From positions 1,300,575 through 1,364,574 of the forward strand of contig CP070837.1 in NCBI GenBank assembly GCA_020341815.1: 64,000 nucleotides of DNA, written 5' to 3'. This DNA is from Candidatus Omnitrophota bacterium (GTDB lineage: Bacteria > Omnitrophota > Gorgyraeia > JAFGHF01). Every line of letters begins with the position of its first letter. Within the stretch, counting starts at the first letter, position 1. Positions 4,269 through 45,363 of this stretch are shown here, one piece after another. Position numbers and translations under genes: made by a program. The notes under the pieces were generated by a model, which saw nothing but the letters and a program-made list of their open reading frames with translations, was not told where the DNA came from and made no database searches.

Positions 4269-6728
4269 ATGAAAGGAGAGAAAGGATTGAAGTACGGACA
4301 TTTTAGCAACGATGGTTTGGAATATGTTGTCACCACGCCAAACACGCCCCGCCCCTGGATTAATTATTTAACTAACGAAGAATATTGTGCCATTGTCTCA
4401 CAGACCGGCGGCGGTTACAGTTTCTTCAAAGACTGCCGTTCGGACAGGCTTACCCGCTGGCTTCCGGAGAACTGGCATTTTGACCGTCCCGGCCGCTATC
4501 TCTATCTCAAAGATGTTCATCCCACCGCAGCCCATGGCTCAAAAGTATGGGCGGCGACATATCAGCCTTTAAGAGTAAAACCGGATTTTTACGAATGCCG
4601 GCACGGATTGGGTTATACGACGATTGCAACGAAATATTTTGGCGTGCGTTCCGAGGTGACTTATTTTGTTCCGCGTCACGACAATTGCGAGCTCTGGCTG
4701 GCCAGGATTACCAATACAACCGATAAGGATAAAACCCTGGAGGTCTTTCCTTATGTAGAGTGGTTGCTCGGCGATTATCATCTGGAGTTACGTTACCGCA
4801 ATATTATGAATTTATACAATCGGGTCTGGTATGAAGCTAAAGATAGAGTTATTCTGGCCAAAAAGACCGCTGCCTGGGGCGATTTGAACATTAAGCCTTT
4901 TACCGATATTGCCTTTTTCGCAACGTCTTTGCCGGTAAAAGGTTATGCCACGCGCAAAAGCATATTTTTGGGCAAGTTCAATACCGAAGAAAATCCCGAA
5001 GGCCTGGTAATGAACGGCCGATTTAAAAATATCGGCTTTTGTTCGGGAGAAGACAGCATTGGTTGTCTGCGTCATACAATAAATCTTGCTCCAGGACAGA
5101 GTAAGGAATTTGCGGTGATTATGGGCCAGGTAGTTTCTCGGCCCAGCGCAAGAAATCTTATCCGGAAGTATCGCCAGGTTTCTAATGCAAAAAAGGAATT
5201 GTCCGAGGTGAAAAAAGTCTGGCGCAGGCGCATCGTTGATAATATCAAGATTGAGACGCCGGATAAGAATCTCGACCTAATAATGAATGTCTGGGTGAAA
5301 TACCAGCTTTATATCTGTAATTTCTGGTCGCGCTCGCCGTCTTTTTATCATGAGGGTTCAGGCGGACGGGGTTATCGCGATTCCTGTCAGGATAGTGAGG
5401 CTATTGTTTCTATTAACCCGGAGCTTACCCGTAAAAGAATCTTAACTTTGGCTTCTTTAATCAGGAAGGACGGCACCAGCGCTCCCGGGTTTTCCGAAGC
5501 GAATAAACCGCAAGGCCATCGGCCCAATAAAGACCATCCGATTTGGCTGACTACGACCGTCTCTGCTTATATTAAAGAGACCGGTGATAAAAAGATACTT
5601 CTGAAGAAATTACCTTATCTCAAAGACCGTTGGATTGACGGTTGGGAGATAGATGCGAACTTTAAAGGCTCTTCCAGATTTGAAGGAAGCGGGACTTTAT
5701 TCGAGCATCTGGAGAGGAACCTGAATTTCACCTTTAATGATGTGGGAAAACGAGGCCTGCCCTTAATCGGCCATGCAGATTGGAACGATGCCATTGACGC
5801 AGCCGGAATAAAGCTGAAAGGCGAAAGCGTCTGGCTGGCTCAGGGCCTGGTGCGCTCTTTAAAGCAGTTAAGCGAACTGGCCTGTCTTATCGGAAAAGAA
5901 AAGAGAGCGAAAGAACTCACCCGTAAAGCCGAAATTATGTCCGAGCGCATCAACAAATATTGCTGGGATGGGGCCTGGTACAAAAGAGGCTTTACCGATA
6001 ACGGCAGTGTATATGGAAGCAGGCAAAACACCGAAGGAAAGATTTATCTGAACAGCCAGTCCTGGGCAATACTTTCCGGTGTGGCCAAGAACGAAAGATT
6101 AAATAAGGTGTTAAGTTCGGTGAATAAATATTTAGACGGGCCGCACGGACTGGCTTTGTTTTATCCGGCTTATTCCAAGTTTGACTCAAGGCTGGGGAGA
6201 ATCAGTATGTTTGCCGAGGGTACAAAGGAAAATGCCGCCGTATTTTGTCATGCGGCAACCTTTATGGCTGTAGCTTATTGCCTGGCAGGCAGAGGTCAAG
6301 AGGCGTATGAGGCGTTAAGGAAGATTATGCCCAGCGCCCAGGCCGATTACGATGTCTATAAGACCGAGCCCTATGCCTATGCCGAATATTTAGTGGGGCC
6401 GGAGCACCCCTATCTTTATGGGGAAGGAGCCTTTACCTGGATTACCGGCACCGCCGGCTGGAACTTTATGGGTGCCTGTGAATATCTTTTAGGTATTCAG
6501 AGGGATTTTTCCGGATTAAGGATTAATCCTTGTATTCCCAAAGACTGGAAGGCATTTAAAATCAGGCGGCCATTTAGAGGCAACGTTTATGAAATAGAAG
6601 TGGAGAATCCGCATCAAGTCTCACGGGGAATAGAAAAGATTTTAGTAGACGGTCGGCCCATAAAAGGCAACCTCGTTCCTGCTTTTGCCGACGCAAAGAC
6701 GCACAAGGTTAAAGTAATAATGGGGTGA
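4269..6728 (+). CDS. GH94 glycoside phosphorylase (cellobiose/chitobiose phosphorylase family).
   Basis: The N-terminus 'MKGEKGLKYGHFSNDGLEYVVTTPNTPRPWINYLTNEEY...GGGYSFFKDCRSDRLTRW' is collinear with cellobiose phosphorylase N-termini, and the ~819-aa length is typical for CBP. The start was chosen at ATG 4269, just after the upstream gene's stop. The ORF-track start at 4119 overlaps that gene. Confidence 0.8.
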   Translation: MKGEKGLKYGHFSNDGLEYVVTTPNTPRPWINYLTNEEYCAIVSQTGGGYSFFKDCRSDRLTRWLPENWHFDRPGRYLYLKDVHPTAAHGSKVWAATYQPLRVKPDFYECRHGLGYTTIATKYFGVRSEVTYFVPRHDNCELWLARITNTTDKDKTLEVFPYVEWLLGDYHLELRYRNIMNLYNRVWYEAKDRVILAKKTAAWGDLNIKPFTDIAFFATSLPVKGYATRKSIFLGKFNTEENPEGLVMNGRFKNIGFCSGEDSIGCLRHTINLAPGQSKEFAVIMGQVVSRPSARNLIRKYRQVSNAKKELSEVKKVWRRRIVDNIKIETPDKNLDLIMNVWVKYQLYICNFWSRSPSFYHEGSGGRGYRDSCQDSEAIVSINPELTRKRILTLASLIRKDGTSAPGFSEANKPQGHRPNKDHPIWLTTTVSAYIKETGDKKILLKKLPYLKDRWIDGWEIDANFKGSSRFEGSGTLFEHLERNLNFTFNDVGKRGLPLIGHADWNDAIDAAGIKLKGESVWLAQGLVRSLKQLSELACLIGKEKRAKELTRKAEIMSERINKYCWDGAWYKRGFTDNGSVYGSRQNTEGKIYLNSQSWAILSGVAKNERLNKVLSSVNKYLDGPHGLALFYPAYSKFDSRLGRISMFAEGTKENAAVFCHAATFMAVAYCLAGRGQEAYEALRKIMPSAQADYDVYKTEPYAYAEYLVGPEHPYLYGEGAFTWITGTAGWNFMGACEYLLGIQRDFSGLRINPCIPKDWKAFKIRRPFRGNVYEIEVENPHQVSRGIEKILVDGRPIKGNLVPAFADAKTHKVKVIMG

Positions 6729-8305: not shown

Positions 8306-9481
8306 ATGGATAAAAAGATTAAACTCCTTTTGGTTGTTTTGGGGTTGATTTCTCTGTTGGGGGCGGGTCTTTCGGCGTGGATTTATTTTTCCGCCCAGGA
8401 AGAAATTATCAGATACGAGGATAAGTATAGCGAATTAGAAAAGAATAATGCATATCTTCGCCAGGGATTGGATGTTGCCGAGAAGGAAAGCCGCCAGTGG
8501 CGGGAAAAGGCGGAGCTTGTAACTGCCACTCTCAATGAATTGAGCCAGAAGTTTAATCTCCTGCAGCAGCAGTATGTATCTTTGAATAAAGAGAAGGATT
8601 CGCTATTCGATGAAAATAAAAGCCTTCTTGAGCAATTGGAGAAAATGAAAGGATTTTATTCCAAAGTTCAGGAGGAAAGGTTAGAAATAATAGAAAAAGT
8701 AGAAGTAGATGCTTCGGATGAATTCTTATCTTCTCTCTTAAAGGAAAAGGCGGCCCTGCAGGTAGAAATAGAAAAGTTAAGAGGGCAGATTGAGAGCGTA
8801 AAGAAGCAAATACGGCCTTCGCAGAATGAATTTGTCAAACTGGAACTAGAAAAAGGCTCGGTGGAGAAAAAATTAAGCGATATGGAGCGTGCCTCAGGCC
8901 TCTTAAGCAGTGATCTTTTGCAGGAGAGAAAAAAGAGGAGTTCTTTAGAGGAGGAGTTAGTCAGAACCGAAGGCCGGCTTTACCGCATAACCCAGGAAAA
9001 AGATAAGCTCGCCGAGCAACTTACCAAGATGAAGCAGGCCCTGGAGAAGAGGCTTCTTGAGTTAAGCGATACGAAGAAGGTGTTGGAAAGCGCGGTCGAG
9101 GGGGCAAAGAAGGCGATGCAGAAGACAGATGCAGGTATCGGCTCCATTGAATTGTCGCCCATTGTGGTAAAGGCAGAGCCGCCGAAAAAAGAGGCGCAGG
9201 AAATTGCGCCGCCGGCGAAAGAACCGCCGAAAAAAGAGGTGCAAGAGAAGCACTTCACGATAGAAGGCCGCATTATTACGATTAACGACAAACATAAGTT
9301 TGTGGTAATTGATATAGGCCGGGATGCCGGCGTGGAAAAGAAAATGCCTTTTAGTGTCTATCGCCAGGATAAAGAAGTAGGAAAAATAGAAGTAATTGAG
9401 GCGCGCAAAAATATCGCTGCCTGCGATATTAAAGAGATGAAGGTCAAGAATTTCGAAATTAACGACAGCGTACGCAGATGA
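8306..9481 (+). CDS. Membrane-anchored coiled-coil protein with a PEPPKKE repeat and a C-terminal beta-rich domain.
   Basis: ATG at 8306 is preceded by the RBS AAAGGTGGGGGG. The product has an N-terminal TM helix, a long heptad-rich region, a 'PPKKEAQEIAPPAKEPPKKEVQEK' repeat and a C-terminal ~80-aa domain. Confidence 0.4.
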   Translation: MDKKIKLLLVVLGLISLLGAGLSAWIYFSAQEEIIRYEDKYSELEKNNAYLRQGLDVAEKESRQWREKAELVTATLNELSQKFNLLQQQYVSLNKEKDSLFDENKSLLEQLEKMKGFYSKVQEERLEIIEKVEVDASDEFLSSLLKEKAALQVEIEKLRGQIESVKKQIRPSQNEFVKLELEKGSVEKKLSDMERASGLLSSDLLQERKKRSSLEEELVRTEGRLYRITQEKDKLAEQLTKMKQALEKRLLELSDTKKVLESAVEGAKKAMQKTDAGIGSIELSPIVVKAEPPKKEAQEIAPPAKEPPKKEVQEKHFTIEGRIITINDKHKFVVIDIGRDAGVEKKMPFSVYRQDKEVGKIEVIEARKNIAACDIKEMKVKNFEINDSVRR

Positions 9482-9978
9482 GAAAGATAATAATTTATTT
9501 TTTGATTTCTGCAGCTTCTCTTGTCTTGCCGGCGAAAGAGACAGGGGCCGAAGAAGATAAGTACGCGCAGGTTATGCGCGAGATGGCTAAAATCCATTAT
9601 ACTCGCGCAAGGAGTTATTATCGTAATGCAGAATACATAAAGGCAAAGATAGAATTAAGAGAGGTTTTAAGACTCGCCCCCGGCCATCAGGGTGCCCTAT
9701 GGTATCTCGATTGCGTAGAAAGAGCCTTGGATAGTCAGAAAGAGGCCTGCGGAAGCCGCCAGGCGAAATTAGCGAAATTAGAAAGAGAAGACAGGCTCAG
9801 TGAGGTGCAGGTGGCATTAAGCGCAGCCCAAGAGATAGAAGTGGATGAGCGCGACGCCGAAAGGGACGAGATAATAAACGAACTTTACAGGAAAGGCAAG
9901 GACTATTTTTCCCGCGGCCTTTACGCGAAAGCCATTGCCTGTTTTGAAAAGGTAATAAAATTAGCAGGAAAATATTGA
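9478..9978 (+). CDS. Secreted TPR-like protein.
   Basis: Signal peptide plus TPR-like helices. The start overlaps the upstream stop (ATGA), suggesting translational coupling. Confidence 0.35.
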   Translation: MRKIIIYFLISAASLVLPAKETGAEEDKYAQVMREMAKIHYTRARSYYRNAEYIKAKIELREVLRLAPGHQGALWYLDCVERALDSQKEACGSRQAKLAKLEREDRLSEVQVALSAAQEIEVDERDAERDEIINELYRKGKDYFSRGLYAKAIACFEKVIKLAGKY

Positions 9979-9980
9979 GA

Positions 9981-10095
9981 TGAACCCCGCTCTTCCAAAA
10001 CATCACGCCTTGCATAAAAGATATGGGTGAAGGCGGTAGGAGGAAGGATGGGGATAAGGGTTTGGCATTACAAAGAAAGGAAGGGCGGGGTGAAG
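9981..10095 (+). repeat. MITE/REP-like inverted-repeat element, copy A (TIRs TGAACCCCGCTCTTCC ... GGAAGGGCGGGGTGAAG).
   Basis: It starts 2 nt after the upstream stop codon. Its interior is ~90% identical to copy B. The 3' terminus carries the GTG (10090) used as the bioY start. Confidence 0.7.
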
Positions 10096-10680
10096 GCCTT
10101 AGAGTTATCCCGGAGTTTTTTACATAGAGAAATCGCTCTTGATCGGACCGCATCAAGAGTAATAGGACTTTGCTGCTTTACTATCCTGACGGCTTTGGGG
10201 GCTTATGTGCGCATTCCCTTGCCGTTTACGCCGGTGCCTATTACCTTGCAGACCTTTTTTGTTTTGCTTTCCGGGGCAGTGCTGGGGAAGAAATGGGGAG
10301 CCTTGAGCCAGCTAAGCTATCTTTTGCTGGGCATTATGGGTTTGCCGGTCTTTACGGGGACTGGGGCGGGCCTATCTTACCTTTTTGGGCCCACGGGAGG
10401 ATATCTTCTGGGATTTGTTGCGGCCAGCTGGATAGTCGGGTCTGCGCTTGAGCGAAGGTCTGCAAATAATACAAGCCGGATTACGCTGGCGATACTCAGC
10501 GGCTCTTTAGCAGGAATTTATCTTTTCGGGATTTCGGGATTAAGGCTCTTTTTGCAGTGTAATTTCTCAAAGGCAGTGGCCTTGGGATTTTTACCTTTCA
10601 TACCCGGAGATATTATAAAGATTATTAGCGCAGTCTTTATCTATGGCAAAATTCAAAAAAGATGCCTAGAATTATTTTAA
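10090..10680 (+). CDS. bioY: Biotin transporter BioY (ECF S-component).
   Basis: 'TLQTFFVLLSGAVLGKKWGA...GLPVFTG...GPTGGYLLGF' is the BioY signature. The start is proposed at GTG 10090 inside the repeat terminus. The longer ORF-track start at 10027 would translate repeat sequence. Confidence 0.7.
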   Translation: MKALELSRSFLHREIALDRTASRVIGLCCFTILTALGAYVRIPLPFTPVPITLQTFFVLLSGAVLGKKWGALSQLSYLLLGIMGLPVFTGTGAGLSYLFGPTGGYLLGFVAASWIVGSALERRSANNTSRITLAILSGSLAGIYLFGISGLRLFLQCNFSKAVALGFLPFIPGDIIKIISAVFIYGKIQKRCLELF

Positions 10681-11291
10681 TTTCCTTGGCTATTCCGGTG
10701 TTTCTCATAGCCGCTTCCGCCTCAGCCGAAATGAAAGATGCGAGATTCCAGAACCGGCATGGAGTGAGAATCGCAACCAGCGACAGCGACGATAGTTTTT
10801 ATGTGACCCGGGCCGGGGCTCTTGTAGATTACAGTTTTCCCCGCTTGAATAAAATTATAAAAATTCTGCCCTTTTTCGAATACCAGCATAATCTCGATAA
10901 TGGCGCCTGGTGGAGAAAAGAAGCCGGCGTAGAAGTGGGCAGTTCTTTTTTTAATGATTGTTTTTACTGGGGTGCTTCCTTTCAGCATATCTGGCAGCAG
11001 GAGGAGAATTACGCTGTTGAGGCCAACGATGAGACCAGTGAATGGGAATCGCGTTTCGTGATTACCCCTCCCATAAAATGGTGGCTCTTTAAAGATAAAT
11101 TGACCTTGAAGCTTTTTGATGAATATACCTATGATTTCGAAAGAGGCCAGCCCACTATTAATGAAGTGGGCGTGAGTTTCGACTGGCAGATTAGCGAAAA
11201 AGTAAAAATGCCCCTTGGCTGGAGGCATATAGACAGGATTCATGATTTTGATTCTGACTTGATGGAAGTATCCGTATTGTTTTCCTTTTAA
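10662..11291 (+). CDS. Small secreted outer-membrane beta-barrel-like protein (hypothetical).
   Basis: Signal peptide; C-terminus '...SVLFSF' ends in Phe; alternating amphipathic strands. Confidence 0.3.
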   Translation: MPRIILISLAIPVFLIAASASAEMKDARFQNRHGVRIATSDSDDSFYVTRAGALVDYSFPRLNKIIKILPFFEYQHNLDNGAWWRKEAGVEVGSSFFNDCFYWGASFQHIWQQEENYAVEANDETSEWESRFVITPPIKWWLFKDKLTLKLFDEYTYDFERGQPTINEVGVSFDWQISEKVKMPLGWRHIDRIHDFDSDLMEVSVLFSF

Positions 11292-11307
11292 CCGGAGAGA
11301 GACAACT

Positions 11308-12267
11308 ATGAGACGACACATTGTATCTTTTGTAACGATGGTAATAATCTTAGGCAGCTATGCGAAGATTTCTTCTGCTTACTGGATCTGGACTCCCCAG
11401 ACCGGAAAGTTTATCAATCCCAAATATGCGGTAAAGGAGACGCCCCAGAAACAGTTTGACTGGGCGATGACTTTCTTTGAGGCCGAGGATTACAAAAAGG
11501 CAATCGCCGAATTCGAGAAGCTCATCAAGCATTATCCTCTTTCAAAGCTTGCGGCCTCCAGCCAGTTTCATCTGGCCTGGGCCCAGGAAAATACGGGGGA
11601 TTATTACAAGGCATTCAAGAGTTATCAACTGGTTATCGATAAATATCCCTACTCGGAACGGGTGGATGAGATAATCGAAAGGCAATACCGTATCGGTAAT
11701 CTCTTCTATAGCGGACAGAAGGCCAAGCTCTTAGGCGTGCCTATATTGCCCGCAAAAAAACAGGCCATAGAAATCTTTAGCGCAGTGGTTGAGAACGCCC
11801 CCTACGGCAAATACGCCCCTTATGCCCAGTACAAATTGGGTGAATGTTATATGGAGATAGAAGATTATATCAATGCGGCCTTGGCCTTTAAGAAAATTAT
11901 CGAGAGTTACCCCAAAAGCCCCTTAGTTGACGACGCCAAGTACCAGATAGCAATGTGCGCGGCAAATTCCACCAGCGGCCCGGAATACAATGAAGAGGAT
12001 ACGGATAAGGCGATTAAAGAATTTAAAGATTTCGTCAGGAGATATCCCGACAGCCAGATGGAAAAAGAGGCCCACCAGCTTATCGATAAACTGGAAGACC
12101 AGAAGGCCCAAAATCAATTCAATATTGCCCGTTTTTATGAAAAACAGAAAAACTTAGACAGTGCTATTATTTATTACGAGGAGATACTGGACAAATATCC
12201 CCAGAGTGAATGGGCGGTCAAGGCCCTGGAGCGGGTACAGATAATCCGCAAAGAGATGGAAAAGTAA
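11308..12267 (+). CDS. bamD: Outer membrane protein assembly factor BamD-like TPR lipoprotein.
   Basis: Signal sequence, multiple TPR motifs ('EDYKKAIAEFEKLIKHYP', 'ARFYEKQKNLDSAIIYYEEILDKYPQSEWA') and the ~300-aa size typical of BamD/YfiO. Confidence 0.5.
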   Translation: MRRHIVSFVTMVIILGSYAKISSAYWIWTPQTGKFINPKYAVKETPQKQFDWAMTFFEAEDYKKAIAEFEKLIKHYPLSKLAASSQFHLAWAQENTGDYYKAFKSYQLVIDKYPYSERVDEIIERQYRIGNLFYSGQKAKLLGVPILPAKKQAIEIFSAVVENAPYGKYAPYAQYKLGECYMEIEDYINAALAFKKIIESYPKSPLVDDAKYQIAMCAANSTSGPEYNEEDTDKAIKEFKDFVRRYPDSQMEKEAHQLIDKLEDQKAQNQFNIARFYEKQKNLDSAIIYYEEILDKYPQSEWAVKALERVQIIRKEMEK

Positions 12268-12270
12268 TTA

Positions 12271-12385
12271 TGAACCCCGCCCTTCCAAAACATCATACTT
12301 TGCATAATAGATATGGGCGAAGGTGGCAGGAGGAAGGATGGGGATAAGGGTTTGGCATTGCGAAGAAGGGAAGGGCGGGGTGAAG
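12271..12385 (+). repeat. MITE/REP-like element, copy B.
   Basis: It begins 3 nt after the bamD stop. The TIRs are TGAACCCCGCCCTTCC / GGAAGGGCGGGGTGAAG. The GTG at 12380 is the lptE start. Confidence 0.7.
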
Positions 12386-12940
12386 AGATTTAATTTTATA
12401 TTCTTATTATTGGCTATAGCATGCATGCAGGGTTGCGGCTATACCGCAGGTTCGCTGCTTCCTTCACACATCAAGACAATTCATATCCGCCCTTTCCGAA
12501 ATAAAATAGAGCTGACCGGGGAATTGAGACAGGAGGAATATCGTTTTCGCAGCTATCGCACGCATCTGGAAACGGATATCACCAAAGAGGTTATCTCGAG
12601 ATTCATAAACGACGGGCACCTCCAGGTGATTGATGAGAAAAATGCGGATGTAGTTTTGGAGGGTGAGCTGATCGATTATCTCAGCCAACCCGTGCGTTAC
12701 GGCTCCGATAACGAGACCGTCGAGGAATACAGAATCAGCATAGTCTGTTCCGTTAAGCTCAACGATATAAAGGAAAATAAACTTATGTGGCAGGAGTCGC
12801 GGATTATCGGCGATACCACTTATAGCGACAGCGACCAGAGTCAAGCGCGGGGATATTATACGAGCGAAAGCACTGCGGTATCCAGCGCTGTTTCCGATTT
12901 AGCCAGGCGCATTGTCAATCGCACCATTGAAGGATGGTAA
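12380..12940 (+). CDS. lptE: LPS-assembly lipoprotein LptE.
   Basis: From GTG 12380: 'VKRFNFIFLLLAIACMQGC|GY', a lipoprotein signal peptide with a lipobox. It lies immediately upstream of holA, the conserved lptE-holA synteny. ~185 aa. Confidence 0.55.
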   Translation: MKRFNFIFLLLAIACMQGCGYTAGSLLPSHIKTIHIRPFRNKIELTGELRQEEYRFRSYRTHLETDITKEVISRFINDGHLQVIDEKNADVVLEGELIDYLSQPVRYGSDNETVEEYRISIVCSVKLNDIKENKLMWQESRIIGDTTYSDSDQSQARGYYTSESTAVSSAVSDLARRIVNRTIEGW

Positions 12941-13806
12941 GCTCAAGAGAGGCACCAGTATATCTGCTCACCGGCAGCGAGCAATTCTTAAAAGAAGAAA
13001 ATCTCACTCGGATTAAATCCGCCCTTTTAGATGCGGCCTCGCGAGATTTCAACTTCAATGTCTTTTATGCAGGCTCCTGCGCGGTTAAGAAGATATTGGA
13101 ATGCGCCTCCACAGCGCCTTTTCTCGGGTCTAAAAGAGTGGTCCTGGTGCACCGAATCGAGGATTTTTCCGCCTCCGAAGAAAAGCTCATCCTTTCCTAT
13201 GTAAAAGTCCCCAATAAAGTTAGCGTGCTTATTCTAGAGACTTCAGAGAGCAATCTTAAACAGAGATTTTTTGCCGAGATTTGCAGGCATGCCCGGCTTA
13301 TTCGTTGTGATCCTCTTAAAGGAAGAGAGCTCGTCATTTGGCTTAAGAGGCAGGTTGCGGCCAAGGGTAAAAAAATAGAAGAGGCGGCCCTCCAGCTTTT
13401 ACTGGATACCTCAAGGCTTAGTTTGCAGGCTTTGGCTTTCTCTCTGGATAATCTTATTTTATATATCGGGCAGAAAGAGACGATTACCTGCGCTGACGTG
13501 GAGAAGTTAACCGGCTCAGACGATATGGCCTCAAGCGCATTTGAGCTTTATGATGCCGTTATTGCCGGTGAGAAAGAAAAATCTTTTGAGGTCCTGGAGA
13601 GTTTATGGAGAGATGGCGTAAGCTTCTCGCAGATCTTAGGGGCTTTAAGCTACAAGTTTATACTGAACAGGAATAGGATAAGTTCCGGCAGGCTCAAAGG
13701 CTATCTTTTGGATTTACAAAATACCGACAGGGATATCAAGACTTCAAGACAGGGACAAAAAATAGCGCTGGAACTTTTGACGGCGAGACTCTTAAACCTT
13801 GGTTAA
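12934..13806 (+). CDS. holA: DNA polymerase III delta subunit.
   Basis: N-terminus 'VYLLTGSEQFLKEE' with delta-subunit-like architecture; overlaps the lptE stop. Confidence 0.6.
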   Translation: MVSSREAPVYLLTGSEQFLKEENLTRIKSALLDAASRDFNFNVFYAGSCAVKKILECASTAPFLGSKRVVLVHRIEDFSASEEKLILSYVKVPNKVSVLILETSESNLKQRFFAEICRHARLIRCDPLKGRELVIWLKRQVAAKGKKIEEAALQLLLDTSRLSLQALAFSLDNLILYIGQKETITCADVEKLTGSDDMASSAFELYDAVIAGEKEKSFEVLESLWRDGVSFSQILGALSYKFILNRNRISSGRLKGYLLDLQNTDRDIKTSRQGQKIALELLTARLLNLG

Positions 13807-14052
13807 TTTTCGCATCAGGCGGGATTTTTTGCGCCAGGCTTTATTCTTATGAATTATCTTTTTGCTTGAGGCCTTATCTAATTTGGAGCTCAGCTGATTA
13901 AGTATCTTTTTTGCCTGCTCGACCTTTTTCTCATCCACAAGGGCTAAAAACTTCTTGTTTAAGGTCTTTAATTCAGAGATTGCCCCGATATTCCGCAGAT
14001 GTCTTTTTTTGGCCTTGCGCAGTTCTTTGAAGGCTGATTTTTTTATTGGCAT
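13792..14052 (-). CDS. rpsT: 30S ribosomal protein S20.
   Basis: 'MPIKKSAFKELRKAKKRHLRN...KKIIHKNKAWRKKSRL' is the S20 signature; divergent from murJ, as in many bacteria. Confidence 0.85.
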   Translation of the reverse strand: MPIKKSAFKELRKAKKRHLRNIGAISELKTLNKKFLALVDEKKVEQAKKILNQLSSKLDKASSKKIIHKNKAWRKKSRLMRKLTKV

Positions 14053-14118
14053 TATTTATTCCTCTTAATCTTTTGCCGCCTATTTGAGTACCAGTTAAGA
14101 TAACATATAAGGGGCGAT

Positions 14119-15759
14119 TTGTCAAGTATGGACGAAAATAAATCCCTGATAAAATCCACACGGGCAATCAGCGAGGCGACCTTTGCCAGCCGCATCCTGG
14201 GCTTTATCCGCGATGTTATCATCGCCCGGCTTTTTGGCACAGGCGTGCGCGCCCAGGCCTTTGTGGTGGCCTTTAGGATTCCTAACCTCTTGCGCAGCCT
14301 GGTGGGTGAAGGCGCCACAAATAGCGCCGTAGTGCCTGTCCTGGCCCGCCTGAATGAGCGGGGTAAAAGAGAGGAATTCTGGCAGGTGGCCAACTGCCTG
14401 TTGAATATCTTGATAGTAGTGCTGGCGGTCTTAACCTTACTGGGTGAGCTGCTTGCCCCGATTATCGTGCGCGCCATTGCCCCCGGCTTTATGAAGGACC
14501 CGCAGAAGCTATACCTGACTATACGGCTGACCAGATTTCTATTTCCTTATATTCTTCTGGTGGGCCTCTCCGCCTATGCGATGGCGGTATTGAACTCTCT
14601 TAAAAGCTTTGCCCTGCCAGCGCTTGCCCCCAGCATGCTTAATATCGCCCTGATTACCAGCGCCTTGATTTTCTGCCCGCGCTTAAAGGAGCCGGTTGAT
14701 GCCTTAGGCATAGGGGTGTTAAGCGGAGGGGTTCTGCAGTTAGCGGTCCAGGTGCCCCTGCTTCTCAAAAAGGGCCTGCTTAAAAAAAGAAGCTTTAGTT
14801 TTTTTCACCCCGCCCTTCTAAATACCACGCCTTACATAGGAGATGTGGGCGAAGGCAATAAAAAGAAGGGCGGGGTTCACCCCCGGGTAAAGGAGATGGG
14901 CAGGCTCTTTCTGCCGCGCACCTTAGGCATTGCAATATACCAGATTAATCTTTTTGTGGATACTATCTTTGCCTCTTTAACCTTTATAGTGGGTGAGGGC
15001 GCCCCGGCGGCCTTTCAGTATGCCAATCGCCTGGTGCAATTTCCCCTGGCCTTATTCGGCATAGCCTTAGCCCAGGCGGCACTGCCTGCTATGTCGGGCC
15101 TGGCCGCGCGCAAGGACTTTGCCCAGATGAGAAGGACGCTTTCCTTTTCTCTGCGCAGTGTTTTTACGATGATGCTGCCGGCCACGGTGGGGCTTATGGT
15201 GTTGGCACGCCCCCTGGTTAAGGTGATATTCGAGCGGGGCACCTTTAGCAGCTATTCTACGAACATCACCTCTTTTGTGCTTTTATTTTATTGTCTGGGG
15301 CTTACCGGCTATGCCGGCATAAAGGTGCTGGCCAGCTATTTCTACTCCCTGAAAGACACCTTTACCCCCAGTAAGGCAGCAGCCATTGCCCTGTTAATCA
15401 ATGTTATCTTAAACTTCCTTTTGATGCGGCCCTTAAAAATGGGGGGCCTGGCTTTGGCTACGGCAATCTCGGTTACAATTAATTTTGGCTGGCTTCTATT
15501 TGCCATGCGCAAGAGAATAGGAAAAATAGAGGGGCTTTTTGCTGCGCTGGGCAGGATTGTCTTGGCCGCCTCTATTATGGGGGCGGCTTTGTGGTTTGGC
15601 CTCTATCGCAGCGGGTTCCTCTGGGGCAGCGGGCTTATGCTTGCCTTTAAATTGTGCGCCTCTATTGCGCTGGGCGTATTGGTTTATTCGGGAGCCCTGA
15701 AGTTGCTTTCGCCTAGTGAGGCCGGGATATTTATCAGATGGATATTAAGGAGAAAATAA
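14119..15759 (+). CDS. murJ: Lipid II flippase MurJ, with a ~79-bp repeat element inserted in-frame.
   Basis: MurJ/MviN motifs ('RIPNLLRSLVGEGA', 'FLPRTLGIAIYQINLFVDTIFAS'). An extra ~25 aa ('SFSFFHPALLNTTPYIGDVGEGNKKKGGVHP') is encoded by the repeat copy at 14805-14883. Confidence 0.8.
   Translation: MSSMDENKSLIKSTRAISEATFASRILGFIRDVIIARLFGTGVRAQAFVVAFRIPNLLRSLVGEGATNSAVVPVLARLNERGKREEFWQVANCLLNILIVVLAVLTLLGELLAPIIVRAIAPGFMKDPQKLYLTIRLTRFLFPYILLVGLSAYAMAVLNSLKSFALPALAPSMLNIALITSALIFCPRLKEPVDALGIGVLSGGVLQLAVQVPLLLKKGLLKKRSFSFFHPALLNTTPYIGDVGEGNKKKGGVHPRVKEMGRLFLPRTLGIAIYQINLFVDTIFASLTFIVGEGAPAAFQYANRLVQFPLALFGIALAQAALPAMSGLAARKDFAQMRRTLSFSLRSVFTMMLPATVGLMVLARPLVKVIFERGTFSSYSTNITSFVLLFYCLGLTGYAGIKVLASYFYSLKDTFTPSKAAAIALLINVILNFLLMRPLKMGGLALATAISVTINFGWLLFAMRKRIGKIEGLFAALGRIVLAASIMGAALWFGLYRSGFLWGSGLMLAFKLCASIALGVLVYSGALKLLSPSEAGIFIRWILRRK
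14805..14883 (+). repeat. MITE/REP-like element, copy D (short variant), in-frame within murJ.
   Basis: The TIRs are TCACCCCGCCCTTC ... GAAGGGCGGGGTTCACCCC. The interior is homologous to copies A/B but with a ~45-bp deletion. Confidence 0.6.
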
Positions 15760-15871
15760 ACCCCGCCCTTCCTAAAAAACGTAAGTTAGGTATCAAAAAA
15801 AGAATTAGAGGACTTTACCTTTGCCAAAGAATATATGTAGACTAAGCAGAAAAATGAAGGGCGGGGTGAAG
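15757..15871 (+). repeat. MITE/REP-like element, copy C (divergent interior).
   Basis: It starts at the murJ stop (TAAACCCCGCCCTTCC) and ends GAAGGGCGGGGTGAAG. The uvrC ATG 15854 and GTG 15866 lie within it. Confidence 0.65.
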
Positions 15872-17263
15872 AGTTTTCCGGATAGCCCGGGCGTATATCT
15901 TATGAAGGATAAGCCCGGGCGCATACTTTATGTGGGCAAGGCCTCTTCCTTAAAGAGGCGAGTGAGCTCCTATTTCCAGAAGCCCCAAGCCGGCAAGACA
16001 CGAGTTTTGCTTTCGCGGACAAAAGATATAGAGTATATCCAGACCTCATCCAGCGCCCAGGCCTTATTGCTGGAGAATTCTTTAATCAAAAAGCACAGGC
16101 CTTATTATAACGCCGCCTTAAAAGACGATAAAAGTTATCCTTATGTGAAAGTCGACACGCCTCGTGCCTGGGGTGCAGTTACAATTACCAGAGGCAAAAA
16201 GGAAAAGGGCGCAAAATATTACGGGCCTTACACCAGTGTCAAATTGCTGAAGAGCGCAATCAAAACTTTAAGGGCGGTATTTCCCTTTAGAAGCTGCCGG
16301 CGCCTGCCTAAAAAACCCTGCCTTTATTTTCAGCTTAAGCTTTGTCCGGGGATGTGCATAAAAAAGATAGATAAAAAGGTTTATCGGGAAAACCTCAGGC
16401 AGCTGGGGTTATTCCTTGAGGGTAAGCACAAAGAGCTCATCTCGCAGCTCACGGATAAGATGCAAAAGGCCGCCAAGCGCGAATCCTTCGAAGAGGCGGC
16501 AATGCTGAGGGATAGAATTACCTCTTTATCGGAGATTATAACCCAGACCAAAGAGACGGGGCAGCAAGAGCTCATTTTTCAGCTTCAGAAGGAATTAAAT
16601 CTCACTCAAGCCCCCCGGCGCATCGAGGCCTTTGATGTTTCAGAGATTGCCGGAAGCGGCACAGTCGGCTCGATGGTTAGTTTCCTAGACGGAAAGCCCG
16701 ATAAAAACAATTATCGCAAGTTTAAGATAAAGACGGTAAAAGGCATTGATGACTATGCAATGATTTGTGAGGTCTTACGCCGCAGGTTCGCCAGGGCTCT
16801 CAAGAGCTCGCTTCCCGATTTGATTATGATTGACGGAGGGAAGGGCCATCTTTCATCAGCCCGTAAGGAATTGAGCGCTTTAGGGCTTTCGAAAATACCC
16901 GTTATTGCCCTGGCCAAGCGCCTGGAGAATATCTATACGCCTTCGGGTGAGGTCTTGAGCTTGCCTCGCGATTCAAAAGTATTACACCTCTTACAGCGCA
17001 TCCGTAATGAGGCGCACCGCTTTGCTATTTCCTATCACCGCAAATTGAGGCAAAAAGATATGCGCGCGTCTTTTCTGGATAAGATTGCCGGCATCGGCCC
17101 CAAAAAGAAAAGGGCTCTCCTGCGCCATTTTAAGTCTGCTCAGGCAATTAAAAAGGCAAGTGTAGAAGATTTGCTGAAGGTGAAAGGTATTGACAGGAAG
17201 ACAGCAGAAAGGATTATCAAATACTTAAAATTAAAGGATTTTTCTCAGTTTCCAACGAATTAA
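15854..17263 (+). CDS. uvrC: Excinuclease ABC subunit C.
   Basis: GIY-YIG module ('SPGVYLMKD...ILYVGKA'), a 'NEAHRFAISYHRKLR' endonuclease region and a C-terminal HhH ('KVKGIDRKTAERIIKYLK'). The start could instead be GTG 15866. Confidence 0.75.
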   Translation: MKGGVKSFPDSPGVYLMKDKPGRILYVGKASSLKRRVSSYFQKPQAGKTRVLLSRTKDIEYIQTSSSAQALLLENSLIKKHRPYYNAALKDDKSYPYVKVDTPRAWGAVTITRGKKEKGAKYYGPYTSVKLLKSAIKTLRAVFPFRSCRRLPKKPCLYFQLKLCPGMCIKKIDKKVYRENLRQLGLFLEGKHKELISQLTDKMQKAAKRESFEEAAMLRDRITSLSEIITQTKETGQQELIFQLQKELNLTQAPRRIEAFDVSEIAGSGTVGSMVSFLDGKPDKNNYRKFKIKTVKGIDDYAMICEVLRRRFARALKSSLPDLIMIDGGKGHLSSARKELSALGLSKIPVIALAKRLENIYTPSGEVLSLPRDSKVLHLLQRIRNEAHRFAISYHRKLRQKDMRASFLDKIAGIGPKKKRALLRHFKSAQAIKKASVEDLLKVKGIDRKTAERIIKYLKLKDFSQFPTN

Positions 17264-17433: not shown

Positions 17434-18672
17434 TCATTTTATGTCGCTTCCATAGCTATAGAGGGAAAACTGCTTGAATGATGCTTCTTTATTACCCCAT
17501 AGTGCTGTTTTATTCAATGGGTCCCATTTCCAGGTACCGCTTTGATTGCTATATCTCGCCGCAGTTTCAATAACGTTACCACTACTCATTTTACGGATGT
17601 TCGCCATGATCATGGTTCCATTAGAGAGACTCGATATGTTGATTAAATTATCTCTGTTTGGATTTAAAAGAGAGGTTTTGCTATGCTCGGACCATGCGAC
17701 TCCGTCCGACGACTTATAAACAATAGTTCGCCATCCATGAAGAGAATCTCCGGCGCCAGAACCAGTTCCCGTTTGCTCACGATTCACTGCCAAAATGAAA
17801 CTGTCTGCGTCGTGAGTTACAGCAGGATTAGAATCTATTGTGGTGAACCCTGTGCTTGATAGATTAATTGCATTAATGTGTGAAGCCTGGAAAACTGGCA
17901 GGTTAAACGGAGGCATCATTTCCCCCACGGCTGTGACAACCTGGAAGGCCCCTGCCGAAAATTTGCGCCACGCGATTAGAATTTTTCCGTTACTGTGGTA
18001 TGTGACCGAAGGTCGGCCTTCAACGCCTGAGTTAAGTGTACCCTGCTCAAGAACTGGGGAAAAAAGGAAACTCCTTGAATTGTGATCGTAAATCTTTGCG
18101 ACAACTTTCTCGTTTTGTTGAAAAACGACCAATCGAAGGTCGCCACCCAGGTCTACTACGTCTGGCGCTGAATTTGTCTCGCCTGCTGGAAGAGCAGTAC
18201 CTGTAGTGTCCCAAATCGCCGGCCCAAGGCCCCAGACTGTTACTATCGTGTTCGGTTTGTCGAACAGAACCCATTGAAGTAGACCATCAAATCGCTTTGC
18301 TGTTGCACCAACTCCATGTGTGGCATTTAAGGTAGTGCTAACAGGGGAATAAACGTTCGGGAAGTTTCCATTCTCCCACATCAATCCATCCTTTGACCAA
18401 CGTACTTGGATCTTCGCCGTCGACCTGTTAGAGCCTGCTTCCATGAATGAAAAAACAAAATTCTCCTTGGATTCTGCGCTCTTGCCAACTAAGTCTTTTA
18501 TCATCTCTTGTCGTGCGGATTCAATAGTTTGAAGAACTTCCGGTTGAGCTCGTTCCAAAGTCTCAGCCCTTCTCAGAAGTGGATTGTCCTGTGCAACGAC
18601 ATTCTGAAGACTAAGAACTAATCCGATAAGTAATACAAATAGTAACTTCGTTGTAAACATTTGCTTTTTCAT
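17434..18672 (-). CDS. Secreted BNR/Asp-box beta-propeller protein (sialidase-like fold) encoded on an AT-rich island.
   Basis: Signal peptide 'MKKQMFTTKLLFVLLIGLVLSLQNVVAQ' and an Asp-box 'SSDGVAWSE'. Codon usage is visibly AT-richer at third positions than neighbouring genes. Confidence 0.4.
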   Translation of the reverse strand: MKKQMFTTKLLFVLLIGLVLSLQNVVAQDNPLLRRAETLERAQPEVLQTIESARQEMIKDLVGKSAESKENFVFSFMEAGSNRSTAKIQVRWSKDGLMWENGNFPNVYSPVSTTLNATHGVGATAKRFDGLLQWVLFDKPNTIVTVWGLGPAIWDTTGTALPAGETNSAPDVVDLGGDLRLVVFQQNEKVVAKIYDHNSRSFLFSPVLEQGTLNSGVEGRPSVTYHSNGKILIAWRKFSAGAFQVVTAVGEMMPPFNLPVFQASHINAINLSSTGFTTIDSNPAVTHDADSFILAVNREQTGTGSGAGDSLHGWRTIVYKSSDGVAWSEHSKTSLLNPNRDNLINISSLSNGTMIMANIRKMSSGNVIETAARYSNQSGTWKWDPLNKTALWGNKEASFKQFSLYSYGSDIK

Positions 18673-18780
18673 CTGTTCTCTCCTTTCGAATTAAAGATGG
18701 CTTCTCTGACAATCTAACTCTGCTCGTTTCTCACTAACGAATAAGGGAACTCACTTTTAATCTTCTAGTTACAACAGAAT

Positions 18781-19038
18781 CTAACGCCCAAAATGAGCGG
18801 TTTTTGGAGCAGCGAAGCTGCGTATATCTTTGACCGTTTTTTGGGGGAAGAGGTTACTCTGCATAAGGAAGCTCGCACCAGCAACAAGGGTTACTACTGA
18901 AAGAAGCTGAATACTTAACATCTTAACTGACCCGGCATGACCTATAGAGGCCGTGCTCAACGCTCGCATTATCGCTAAAGCGATAATGCCGCTAATTATC
19001 CCGACGAAAACACCAATACTGATTCCAATAAAATTCAA
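18781..19038 (-). CDS. Small two-TM membrane protein (hypothetical), same AT-rich island.
   Basis: Two hydrophobic helices; no recognisable family. Confidence 0.25.
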   Translation of the reverse strand: MNFIGISIGVFVGIISGIIALAIMRALSTASIGHAGSVKMLSIQLLSVVTLVAGASFLMQSNLFPQKTVKDIRSFAAPKTAHFGR

Positions 19039-19301
19039 GATGTTTCCTTTTCTTCTTCTTCCTTATGTTCTTCTTGCCCTAACATTCGAAATCAGGGGCA
19101 CAAGCCGCGCAATGGACCGCATCTGAATCGATGAGTGCCATATCTTCGATGGGTTTTATTTTAATATGTGGAATACATCTTTTCTGGATAGTTTTCAGTA
19201 ACTTTAGTCAATTATTTCATATTTCTCAGGCCTTGTCAAGAAAACCTTGCTTATTTTCTGCCTTTTCTTTATAATGCCACAAGAGGTAGATTCTGTTTAA
19301 A

Positions 19302-19637
19302 ATGAAAGAATATACCCCCTTCCAACGCAAGGTTTTCAAAGCAGTTTCGGCAGTTCCCTTTGGCCGGAGGCGCAGCTACCAGTGGGTGGCCAGGCGAATA
19401 GGCATGGGCCTTGCTTTGAAGAAAAACAAAGACTTATTTATTGTGCCCTGCCATAGGGTTGTAATGGCCGATGGCGCCCTCGGCGGTTATGTTTTGGGTA
19501 AAAAAATGAAGAAAATCCTTTTAGGTTTGGAGGAGAGATTGACGGGGGCAAGGGCCATCTTTCATCGGCCCTTAGAGGAGCTGCTCAAGGTAAAGGGTAT
19601 TGATAGAAAAGCCGCAAAAAATATTCTCAAATATTAG
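19302..19637 (+). pseudogene. Chimeric ORF: a paralog of the methylated-DNA-protein-cysteine methyltransferase DNA-binding domain fused to a uvrC 3' fragment.
   Basis: Residues 1-~80 are ~85% nt-identical to the intact ogt-like gene at 20500 and retain PCHRV, but 'RPHAARAV' is deleted. From 19540 the sequence matches uvrC 16832-16864 and then uvrC ~17165-17230 (…GKGHLSSA…LKVKGIDRK…). The junction falls at an ATTGAC microhomology. Confidence 0.5.
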
Positions 19638-19638
19638 A

Positions 19639-20364
19639 ATGAATGTTAAAGAATTATATCTAAAGAGCAAAGACAACAATCGCCTGGCGATAAACATAAT
19701 TTCCGGGGCTAAGGATAAGGTTATAATTATCTGTCCCGGATTTTTTCAAAGCAAAGATACGCCTACTTTTGGCGCCATTGCCAATTCTTTTGGGGAAGAT
19801 TTTGACATAATAAGCGTAGATATGAGGGGCCATGGACGAAGCGGCGGTCTGTGCACCTTTGGGGTAAAAGAGGAAGAGGACTTAAGCGTAATTATAGATT
19901 ACGCCAGAGAAAGATACAAGCGCATAGGGATGCTTGCCTTTTCTTTAGGCGCATTGGCATGCGTAAATTATGTCTCCGGAAGCGACAGGGTGAACAGTTT
20001 AGTTTTGGTAAGCGCCCCCATGGCCTTTGAGGAAATAGAAAACCAGTTCTGGAAGCCCTCGGCGGTAAAGACCGGCCTGCGCGGCCTGGAAAAGTCAGCG
20101 GGGGCAAGACTCGGCAATCCTTTCCTGGATAAGAAAAAGCCCATTGAGGTAATAGGTAAGGTTTCGCCTACCCCTGTATTGTTTATCCACGGGCAGGCAG
20201 ACCCTATTGTTAGCGTGCGGCACAGCAGGGCGCTGTATAAGGCAGCAGGTGAGCCTAAGAAACTGGTGATATTTGATAAGGGCAGCCATGCCCAGGAGTT
20301 ATTTCAGGATTGTAAAGAGAAGTTTGTAAGTGAAATACAGGCGTGGTTTAAAAAGACGTTATGA
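19639..20364 (+). CDS. Alpha/beta-hydrolase fold protein.
   Basis: A GxSxG-like nucleophile elbow ('AFSLGA') and a C-terminal 'GSHAQ' His. Start taken at ATG 19639, just after the chimeric ORF's stop. Confidence 0.5.
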   Translation: MNVKELYLKSKDNNRLAINIISGAKDKVIIICPGFFQSKDTPTFGAIANSFGEDFDIISVDMRGHGRSGGLCTFGVKEEEDLSVIIDYARERYKRIGMLAFSLGALACVNYVSGSDRVNSLVLVSAPMAFEEIENQFWKPSAVKTGLRGLEKSAGARLGNPFLDKKKPIEVIGKVSPTPVLFIHGQADPIVSVRHSRALYKAAGEPKKLVIFDKGSHAQELFQDCKEKFVSEIQAWFKKTL

Positions 20365-29553: not shown

Positions 29554-30225
<672 letters not shown>

Positions 30226-30354
30226 TATTCAGTATCTTGTATTTAGTAAAATAGAAAATAGTAAAAACACTTATAAATATTTAAAGATTATATAAAAAAG
30301 TTTTTGACTAGATACTAGATACGAGCGACTAGCGACTATTATTAGGGAGGTAAA

Positions 30355-42921: not shown

Positions 42922-42933
42922 AAATAAAAAAAA

Positions 42934-42980
42934 GCCCCCCCGATGCTTTTTATAAAAAACAATCGGGGGGTTTTTATTTT
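42934..42980. terminator. Bidirectional intrinsic terminator between the convergent aldolase-like gene and lptG.
   Basis: A 9-bp GC stem (CCCCCCGAT…ATCGGGGGG) flanked by an A-run on one side and a T-run on the other. Confidence 0.65.
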
Positions 42981-44065: not shown

Positions 44066-44196
44066 CCCGCCCTTCCTTTCATCTCATCGTAATCTTAGGT
44101 CCAATTTTAACTTTGCTAGACTGTCTCTGCATTGCTTTATAGCTTTTACCCTTGCCCTTAATTGTAAGTATGCGGTTTTAGGAAGAGCGGGGTTCA
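44062..44196 (-). repeat. MITE/REP-like element, copy E (between lptF stop and lptG start).
   Basis: The TIRs are TCACCCCGCCCTTCC ... GGAAGAGCGGGGTTCA with a unique interior. The GTG-bearing terminus faces lptG. Confidence 0.6.
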
Positions 44197-45290: not shown

Positions 45291-45363
45291 CCCGCTCTTC
45301 CTTTCTTCCCAATACCACTTGCCTATCCCCAATCCTTCCGATGTTTAGGAAGGGCGGGGTTCA
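45287..45363 (-). repeat. MITE/REP-like element, copy F (between comF stop and lptF start).
   Basis: The TIRs are TCACCCCGCTCTTCC ... GGAAGGGCGGGGTTCA. Confidence 0.6.

Follow-up and report, generated by a model that had tools for sequence, protein, structure and literature searches.

The sequence examined here, which we call the window, is a 64-kb stretch of a single metagenome-assembled genome (MAG) of Candidatus Omnitrophota, and about 95% of it is covered by open reading frames (ORFs). Among its genes is murJ, encoding the lipid II flippase, an ORF of 546 aa at 14119–15759 on the forward strand, and inside this gene lies a short element bounded by inverted repeats, which is the main subject of this work. 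The product gives a 100% match to MurJ of a Candidatus Omnitrophota MAG, belongs to Pfam PF03023 and matches solved MurJ structures (E = 2e-85), so that homology to the fold of the MOP superfamily with its 14 transmembrane helices (TM) is clear; the database protein (P0001) starts at ATG 14128 and has 543 aa. The ORF is unbroken and its translation includes SFSFFHPALLNTTPYIGDVGEGNKKKGGVHP, exactly the peptide quoted in an earlier note on this DNA, which had claimed that a repeat element is inserted in murJ without disturbing the frame.

The core of the murJ element is 68 nt long (14808–14875, CCCCGCCCTTCT...AGAAGGGCGGGG, running from CCCC to GGGG), and its purine-rich strand, which carries the mini-ORF described below, lies in the sense of murJ. 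The tetranucleotide TTCA stands on both sides of it (14804–14807 and 14876–14879). The terminal inverted repeats, ACCCCGCCCTTCT at 14807–14819 and AGAAGGGCGGGGT at 14864–14876 on the forward strand, are 13 nt each and 100% complementary to one another (pair I22). The net insertion, the core plus one copy of TTCA, is 72 nt and adds 24 codons, HPALLNTTPYIGDVGEGNKKKGGV, at 14806–14877 (residues 230–253 of the 546-aa ORF, the exact register being ambiguous because of the repeat); the earlier note was thus right about the insertion, while its size of 78–79 nt and about 25 residues has to be corrected. The element, with its 68-nt core, has no complete transposition gene and contributes only a 24-codon read-through segment. 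As RNA it folds at −36.2 kcal/mol (z = −5.5); ribosomes must unwind this hairpin, and any effect of this on murJ expression is conjecture. Translational bypass of the T4 gene 60 or 'byp' type was considered and rejected, as the insert is open and in frame and bypass is unneeded, and the hairpin was also rejected as an intrinsic terminator, since no U-run follows the stem.

The alignment with MurJ orthologues that the earlier note had proposed as a check showed that the segment is indeed extra. The closest orthologues (P0002, P0003, P0005 and P0007; 72–75% identity, 519–520 aa) do not have the 24 residues and read KKRSF(G/R)F(I/L)HPKVKE, against KKRSFSFF-HPALLNTTPYIGDVGEGNKKKGGV-HPRVKE in the window. 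At the DNA level they have a single F-(I/L)-H-P site, i.e. an empty one, flanked by the same codons as in the window, and when the core and one TTCA were removed from the window gene in silico, the resulting KKRSFSFFHPRVKEMGRLF was collinear with the orthologues. It is clear that murJ took up an insertion with duplication of its target, and the empty site with the same flanking codons, together with a 4-nt direct repeat like that of other copies, bears out the claim that the family is or was mobile. Aligned with solved MurJ structures of the E. coli type, the extra residues fall in the gap between TM6 and TM7, a linker which, by established MurJ topology, we take to be cytoplasmic, in agreement with the proposed loop before TM7. 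The AlphaFold model (mean predicted local distance difference test score, pLDDT, 83; predicted template modelling score 0.82) is helical throughout except in the insert, and the only segment with pLDDT below 50 comprises residues 226–251, between the predicted helices 192–218 and 255–286.

The TM6–TM7 linker appears as a permissive site also in other members of the phylum. Four other Omnitrophota MurJ orthologues carry unrelated, hairpin-forming in-frame inserts of 19–24 codons in the same loop (L121, 4060–4116; L125, 2283–2351; L126, 1203–1274; L127, about 4412–4501), and that of L121 occupies exactly the same F-H-P site. The L126 insert belongs to another dispersed repeat family, since its second half recurs with 97% identity at a different locus, L127 7250–7286. 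No copy of the family found in the window was present at the related murJ loci L121–L127.

A search of the window with the 12-mer arm, one mismatch being allowed, gave 12 occurrences, against 0.41 expected from shuffled sequences (none of 100 shuffles reached 12). These form six pairs, at 9984–10091, 12274–12381, 14807–14876 (the murJ copy), 15760–15867, 44064–44193 and 45289–45360. The five copies outside murJ all lie at gene starts, in sense to the downstream gene, and four of them share the arrangement stop-(1–5 nt)-ATGAA-CCCC...GGGG-TGAAR; the exception is the copy between murJ and uvrC, with TAAA on its left. On the forward strand, a 108-nt copy at 9984–10091 stands at the start of bioY (BioY Pfam E = 9e-46; old ATG at 9980, new GTG at 10090) and another 108-nt copy at 12274–12381 at the start of lptE (old ATG at 12270, new GTG at 12380). 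Although they stand at different genes, these two are identical at 97 of 108 positions. The lptE orthologue of L124 begins ATG AAA AGA (MKRINFIF), whereas the window gene begins GTG AAG AGA (VKRFNFIF) directly after the element. Two further copies, on the reverse strand, are found at the starts of lptF/lptG genes: one of 130 nt at 44064–44193 (GTG 44065) and one of 72 nt at 45289–45360 (GTG 45290), the interior of which corresponds to the second half of the 108-nt type.

The fifth copy, again 108 nt and on the forward strand (15760–15867), follows directly after the murJ stop at the start of uvrC, and its junctions were compared with those in L121, L123 and L124. In the relatives uvrC starts MDIKEKIKAFPDSPGVY and overlaps the 3' end of murJ by 22 nt, which places the ancestral ATG at 15738. 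In the window the element follows ATA AA; the first seven codons (MDIKEKI in the relatives) are lost and an arm-encoded MKGGV is gained. The new start is ATG 15854 or GTG 15866, both in the right arm, and an independent gene call chose 15854. The gene reads ATG AAG GGC GGG GTG AAG AGT here, and a G-to-T change beside the right arm created the ATG at 15854. The flanks of this copy, TAAA and TGAA, are not a perfect repeat. Relatives L121, L124 and L127 share with window positions 9400–16000 the order TPR/BamD-like gene, lptE, holA, rpsT (reverse strand), murJ and uvrC; in the relatives a PilZ gene precedes the BamD-like gene, while in the window it is missing and bioY is closer.

The family was surveyed by scanning JGI metagenomes for the two-arm pattern, and all family counts given below refer to the matches listed. 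At least 120 contigs match the pattern, and all named carriers are Omnitrophota. A scan of genome contigs (596 Gb) with the single 14-mer GAAGGGCGGGGTGA was nonspecific, and at least 120 unrelated single matches (L001–L120) were disregarded. The listed matches fall into two classes, the class of the window and long nested palindromes flanked by ACCA..TGGT, probably a different family. The latter share the 12-mer arm, have flanks ACCA..TGGT or CCCA..TGGG and contain nested palindromes ACCACCCCGCCCTTCGGGCACCCCTCC...GGAGGGGTGCCCGAAGGGCGGGGTGGT; their lengths of 84, 87, 93 or 99 nt are all multiples of 3, and many are in frame within long ORFs, behaving like the Rickettsia palindromic elements (RPEs). 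They were seen at L133 (5104–5196), L142 (592–675), L161 (5693–5791), L195 (7875–7973), L200 (1603–1701), L213 (4437–4520), L232 and L235.

When copies of the window's class were oriented by the purine-rich strand of the interior, 92 had the flanks (A/G)TGAA...TGAA, and the junction takes the form TGAA-CCCCGCCCTTCC. Other 4-mers that match on both sides are TTCA (murJ and L237), TTGA (L168 and L223), TCAA (L190) and TAAA (L230); flanks that vary and yet match each other are what a true 4-bp target duplication predicts. Start codons were analysed separately in 95 copies whose flanks match as TGAA or TTCA, and these flanks also set the orientation. On the left of the element the codon is ATG in 77 of the 95 and GTG in 18, the latter being mostly tandem copies. 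On the right, the last G of the element and the adjoining TG form a GTG that opens a frame of 60 codons or more, or one running off the contig, in 86 of 95 copies, compared with 0 and 3 for the other frames; in 93 of 95 the purine-rich strand of the interior is the one in gene sense. Seven protein predictions beginning at the junction GTG were searched for in a public collection; five are present there exactly, and their named cluster-mates are Omnitrophota. TGAA or TTCA occurs 538 times in the window itself, and no fewer than 36 of these sites lie outside stop-to-stop ORFs; with so many sites available neutral survival alone is insufficient to explain the start-codon bias. The habit of inserting at start codons is a property of the family.

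Intragenic copies are rare, about 5 of about 100, because the normal site of the family is the start codon; all of them are in frame. This agrees with the earlier description of the murJ case as a rare event. In a DUF72 gene (L237) there is a 75-nt insertion with a TTCA duplication. Orthologous GH2 glycosidase genes contain two tandem in-frame 105-nt copies in L181 (11419–11626) and one in L165 (2125–2227), encoding the peptide EPRPSQEGSPSAVSSGRTNRVSSIPTVHFDNEGRG, which is a copy-number polymorphism within a coding sequence. The murJ core is identical to copies at unrelated loci at 60 of 68 positions (L153) and 58 of 67 (L163), that is 85–88%, and at 55 of 69 to the first part of the copy at 9984–10091. 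Among the family loci compared, orthologous insertion sites were too few to tell ancient retention from recurrent insertion.

All copies encode MNPALP(K)... when translated from the left ATG, and in most the translation ends in ...(K)KGRAG. This mini-ORF was examined in 74 distinct copies among the matches listed, with shuffled interiors as the control. The pattern length modulo 3 is 0, 1 and 2 in 44, 18 and 12 copies, respectively. Starting at the ATG, 42 of the 74 copies have an open frame across the whole element, compared with 15% when interiors were shuffled. In the class of length 0 modulo 3, 31 of 44 have an open frame, which ends with the TGA of the right-hand TGAA and overlaps the new GTG (GTGA); in the class of length 1 modulo 3 there are copies whose frame continues into the host protein. 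An upstream ORF has its end between −4 and +22 nt in 63 of the 74 copies, and 29 of those 63 use the TGA of the left ATGAA as their stop. No amino acid of the mini-ORF is changed by the arm polymorphisms GCC/GCT and AGG/AGA or by the variant CCCAGCCC/GGGCTGGG, which is also compensatory between the two arms.

Several copies retain recognizable pieces of a nuclease gene. The interiors of 111-nt copies in L147 and L214 match positions 2–25 of the Pfam GIY-YIG profile (E = 4e-4 and 5e-3), and copies of 111–129 nt encode MNPALPKNWYYVYLLKSNTRSWIYIGCTNDL. The 44-aa mini-ORF of L159, used as a protein query, matched only itself and P0122, a protein that keeps a nuclease-like C-terminal tail, GSGLAGLKLRLGIKRKGRAG. 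The same holds for the window copy at 44064, whose mini-ORF end, DSLAKLKLDLRLR, resembles the C-terminal tail of the GIY-YIG protein. The 'third arm' in many copies was considered as an alternative-pairing switch and is better explained as a remnant of the coding region for the nuclease C-terminus, R-L-G-I.

Full-length proteins were obtained by an exhaustive profile-free search of representatives with P0122, followed by a search with P0129. The proteins recovered have 93–110 aa and are annotated 'GIY-YIG nuclease family protein [Candidatus Omnitrophica]'. P0123, P0129, P0134 and P0137–P0144 start M(N/S)PA(L/P)P, and most of these, as well as P0126, end in (E/G)GRAG or a variant of it. Assignment to the GIY-YIG superfamily is firm: Pfam PF01541 is precomputed for P0129 and P0137–P0147, and 15 sequences agree without exception at Y12, Y23, G25, R33, H37 and E57. 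Among solved structures the closest are the UPF0213 proteins BH0048 (PDB 1zg2, E = 5e-10) and EF2693 (PDB 1ywl, E = 4e-7), both of unknown function and of the same minimal single-domain architecture, followed by SLX1. The more distant relatives P0145–P0147 have neither MNPALP/GRAG ends nor repeat-encoded termini.

The full-length element is about 290 nt long and consists of a single gene of 93–99 codons for a stand-alone GIY-YIG nuclease of the Slx1/UPF0213 type, the first codons (M-N-P-A-L-P) and the last (G-R-A-G-stop) of which are themselves the terminal inverted repeats of 12–14 nt. The DNA of L248, L250, L251–L253, L228 and L163 shows the order (A/G)TGA(A/G)-arm-ORF-arm-TGAA inside operons. 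For example, in an Mbh/Mrp-type operon of L251 a nuoK-like gene is separated from the following ORF by taaaATGAA-CCCAGCCCTTCC...[ORF]...GGAAGGGCTGGG-TGAAta, and in L248 the neighbours of the full-length copy are the ferredoxin-subunit and alpha-subunit genes of a 2-oxoacid:ferredoxin oxidoreductase operon. The copy in L228 has another co-varied arm pair, and in L163 a 68-nt copy of the murJ type stands in tandem with a full-length, stop-containing copy bearing exactly the arms of the window. The full-length copies in L228 and L163 were found with a profile hidden Markov model (HMM) and had been missed by the motif and long-range arm-pairing scans. At the family loci examined no ORF other than the GIY-YIG gene was found between the repeats. 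Near the full-length element of L251, at 18018–20291, there is a gene for a reverse transcriptase (RVT_1)–TIR fusion, followed by a DUF4917 gene; the two look like a defence-system gene pair.

Taken together, these data make it likely that the murJ segment is a non-autonomous, internally deleted copy, of the type of a miniature inverted-repeat transposable element (MITE), of a small family of mobile elements of Omnitrophota. The 'MITE' label of the earlier note is fair, as full-length relatives with the same termini encode a nuclease. The murJ element has a 68-nt core, well under the limit of about 500 bp, 13-nt terminal inverted repeats and a TTCA duplication of fixed length, and the family has multiple dispersed copies, six of them in 64 kb, including the nearly identical pair at bioY and lptE. 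In place of the usual autonomous partner there are the copies of about 290 nt with the same or co-varied termini, which encode the GIY-YIG nuclease and not a known type of transposase. It appears that the family descends from a tiny, gene-sized GIY-YIG nuclease element.

The family usually inserts where a start codon forms part of a tight operon junction, at the TGAA of ATGAA, and TGAA is duplicated. The left copy retains the old ATG and often the TGA stop of the upstream gene, and on the right the final G of the element and TGAA form GTG-AA, the new start of the host gene. The ORF of the element, or in deleted copies the mini-ORF MNPALPK...KGRAG, stops at the TGA overlapping this GTG. Ribosomes starting at the old ATG would probably read through the hairpin and re-initiate at the GTG. 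With such re-initiation the host gene would stay expressed and the nuclease would be expressed for free. For the murJ copy the target was a TTCA, a non-canonical site lying among the F-H-P codons of the cytoplasmic TM6–TM7 linker. Its survival can be understood because 68 + 4 = 72 nt keeps the frame, the sense strand has no stop and the loop is disordered and tolerant of insertions. In silico, the flipped core gives an in-frame TAG, and selection can therefore account for the orientation seen in murJ. We expect the murJ copy to be a neutral or slightly costly passenger rather than an adaptation, a rare intragenic insertion presumably filtered by selection.

The GIY-YIG nuclease is the only ORF between the repeats, and for this reason we infer that it may mobilise the element. 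A more far-reaching proposal is that the family represents a new type of autonomous mobile element of about 290 nt, containing only a Slx1/UPF0213-type GIY-YIG gene whose end codons form the repeats, which transposes into ATGA(A) junctions and hands the ribosome back through UGA/GUG. Such an element would duplicate 4 bp, TGAA, and borrow the ribosome-binding site and ATG of the host gene. We put this forward tentatively, at somewhat less than even chances.

Several observations weigh against these interpretations. In both murJ and L237 the TTCA flanks are combined with an interior in sense, the reverse of the 92 TGAA copies; loose control of orientation, a non-canonical target or an inversion between the perfect arms are possible reasons. 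We know of no transposition chemistry in GIY-YIG nucleases, and the protein of the element has no DNA-binding domain. All full-length copies recovered with an intact ORF carry the arm variants CCCAGCCC or CCCCGCCCCTCC, the only copy with exactly the arms of the window (L163) has an internal stop, and the profile HMM search found no intact GIY-YIG copy in the 64-kb window. The translational relay, from the old Shine–Dalgarno sequence and ATG through the mini-ORF to re-initiation at UGA/GUG, is deduced from sequence statistics, and two 108-nt copies in the window have premature stops in the mini-ORF. Finally, this is a single MAG, and murJ may not be strictly essential here if a second lipid II flippase is encoded elsewhere in the genome.

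An alternative is that the family is moved by an unlinked conventional transposase (DDE or HUH) that recognises the 12–14-nt repeats, the GIY-YIG gene being cargo or a separate selfish coloniser. A 4-bp duplication with terminal inverted repeats is the classical signature of DDE transposition, and no strand-transfer activity of GIY-YIG enzymes is known to us. The 2006 survey of the superfamily lists no transposase among them either (PMC1564403). For cargo, however, it is hard to explain why the repeats are the first and last codons of the nuclease, with compensatory changes that are also synonymous, and at the loci examined the repeats enclose no ORF but the GIY-YIG gene. Nor was a transposase gene seen beside any copy, though no systematic search for one was made. 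We regard this explanation as unlikely.

It is also conceivable that the repeats are REP-like regulatory RNA or DNA hairpins of the host at operon junctions, no longer mobile, and that the murJ copy is an old relic. Such a function would fit the strong stems of the copies (−25 to −38 kcal/mol, z = −2.4 to −5.5), the much higher conservation of arms than of interiors, and the precise placement at start codons in sense. Yet orthologous junctions in relatives with 68–75% MurJ identity have no copies, there are tandem copies and differences in copy number between orthologues, and the interiors are decayed fragments of the nuclease gene. Moreover, where the arms mismatch on the sense strand, C·A is seen in 24 copies and U·G, which would allow wobble pairing, in only 10, and pairing in the mRNA is thus not visibly selected. 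No Rfam 15 covariance model matched anywhere in the window at the gathering threshold. This makes a purely regulatory, immobile repeat quite improbable.

An assembly artefact, in which repeat-induced mis-joining placed a repeat copy inside murJ, must be mentioned as the source is a MAG and repeats can mislead assemblers. It is highly improbable, since an independent assembly of run SRR14739666 by Logan shows no difference over 3,632 nt spanning the murJ insertion and the next copy, and the insert is exactly in frame, with a target duplication and both flanks collinear with orthologues. That the 24 residues are a native, lineage-specific expansion of a variable MurJ loop which resembles the repeat by coincidence can practically be dismissed: several Omnitrophota orthologues do have extra residues there (P0006, P0011, P0013, P0022 and P0102), but these are unrelated hairpin-forming inserts, one matching a dispersed repeat elsewhere, and the window segment has perfect 13-nt inverted repeats identical to those of five other window copies, a flanking direct repeat and a nucleotide identity to copies at unrelated loci that already refutes this idea.

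The internally deleted elements of Omnitrophota resemble known bacterial MITEs (such as Correia/NEMIS, ERIC/IRU, BOX and Nezha) in their inverted repeats, short fixed duplication, internal deletions that keep both ends, near-identical dispersed copies and occasional in-frame fusions; in-frame intragenic MITEs are documented for RPEs, ERIC, BOX, QMITE1 and the Anabaena MITEs (reviewed in PMC10969869). Known bacterial MITEs share their ends with IS elements encoding DDE-type transposases, whereas here the only gene between the ends is the GIY-YIG gene of about 95 aa, its coding sequence includes the repeats, and insertion is tied to ATGAA start codons and supplies a start codon anew.

The RPEs, for which no autonomous partner or enzyme is known to us, are palindromic repeats of about 100–150 bp in Rickettsiales, and for them intragenic in-frame insertion is the common state. 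As in RPEs, there are many short palindromic copies per genome, some lying in frame in conserved or essential genes where the protein fold tolerates the peptide (PMC10969869). In the present family, by contrast, the intragenic position is the exception, the start codon is the normal site and a full-length form encoding a nuclease exists. The host, Candidatus Omnitrophota, is outside the Rickettsiales that carry RPE families 1–10; the likeness is functional only and relatedness in sequence is not expected.

With the GIY-YIG homing endonucleases (I-TevI and the free-standing Seg and Mob proteins of T4-like phages) the family has in common a selfish nuclease gene wedged into an operon without disrupting its neighbours. 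Homing endonucleases have long DNA-binding domains, act on one cognate allele through recombinational repair and show neither inverted repeats nor target duplication, while the proteins described here have 93–99 aa with the catalytic domain only, and their elements have repeats and duplications and occur at many unrelated genes. Elements of the IS200/IS605 group and the PATE/REP derivatives are similar in their hairpin-forming ends, a specific tetranucleotide, a preferred orientation and tiny non-autonomous derivatives. They depend on an HUH Y1 transposase, do not duplicate the target and have separate subterminal hairpins, unlike the present family, whose ends pair with each other, whose target is duplicated over 4 bp and whose only ORF has the GIY-YIG fold; it is distinct from REP-RAYT systems as well. 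According to the 2006 superfamily survey, stand-alone prokaryotic Slx1-like proteins are minimal, vertically inherited housekeeping enzymes (PMC1564403). An integron attC site (core RYYYAAC/GTTRRRY) was also considered and rejected: the arms are ACCCCGCCCTTC and GAAGGGCGGGGT, and the flanking lptE, holA, rpsT, murJ and uvrC are syntenic in relatives without the element.

Two other repeats were noticed in the window. At 30204–30343 there is an AT-rich cluster of inverted and direct repeats with ACTAGATACTAG / TAGTCGCTAGT-like units, whose 37-nt arms are 78% complementary and 66 nt apart (pairs I1, I2 and I15). At 42926–42980 a palindrome, AAAAAAAAGCCCCCCCGATGC...AATCGGGGGGTTTTTATTTT (pairs I3 and I4), is bordered by an A-run and a T-run and resembles an intrinsic terminator acting in both directions, placed where ORF 42974–44065 ends. 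Searches of the window for tRNA and tmRNA genes found none, and the viral contigs searched contained no copy of the element family. Literature searches, of incomplete coverage, found no relevant account of an Omnitrophota repeat, a start-codon-targeting MITE or a GIY-YIG transposon, nor a description of an inverted-repeat-bounded, GIY-YIG-only element aimed at start codons, and any novelty is provisional.

The murJ insertion alone is a known phenomenon, as seen with RPEs: a palindromic element in frame in an essential gene, tolerated by a flexible loop. The family as a whole illustrates one way for a selfish element to persist where genes are packed very tightly, at the ATGA(A) junction where a 4-bp duplication spares both neighbours, and its read-through frame may preserve translational coupling. 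It also links tiny stand-alone GIY-YIG nucleases to DNA mobility. Annotation is affected as well, since dozens of genes start at a GTG built by the element and some proteins gain or lose N-terminal residues. If the autonomous-element proposal holds, the family would provide the first case in prokaryotes of a GIY-YIG enzyme driving a transposon-like element, it would give a biological role to part of the UPF0213 family, and the murJ copy would be a rare off-target landing in frame. Should the nuclease indeed move the element, it would offer a very small and tractable system for sequence- or structure-directed DNA insertion.

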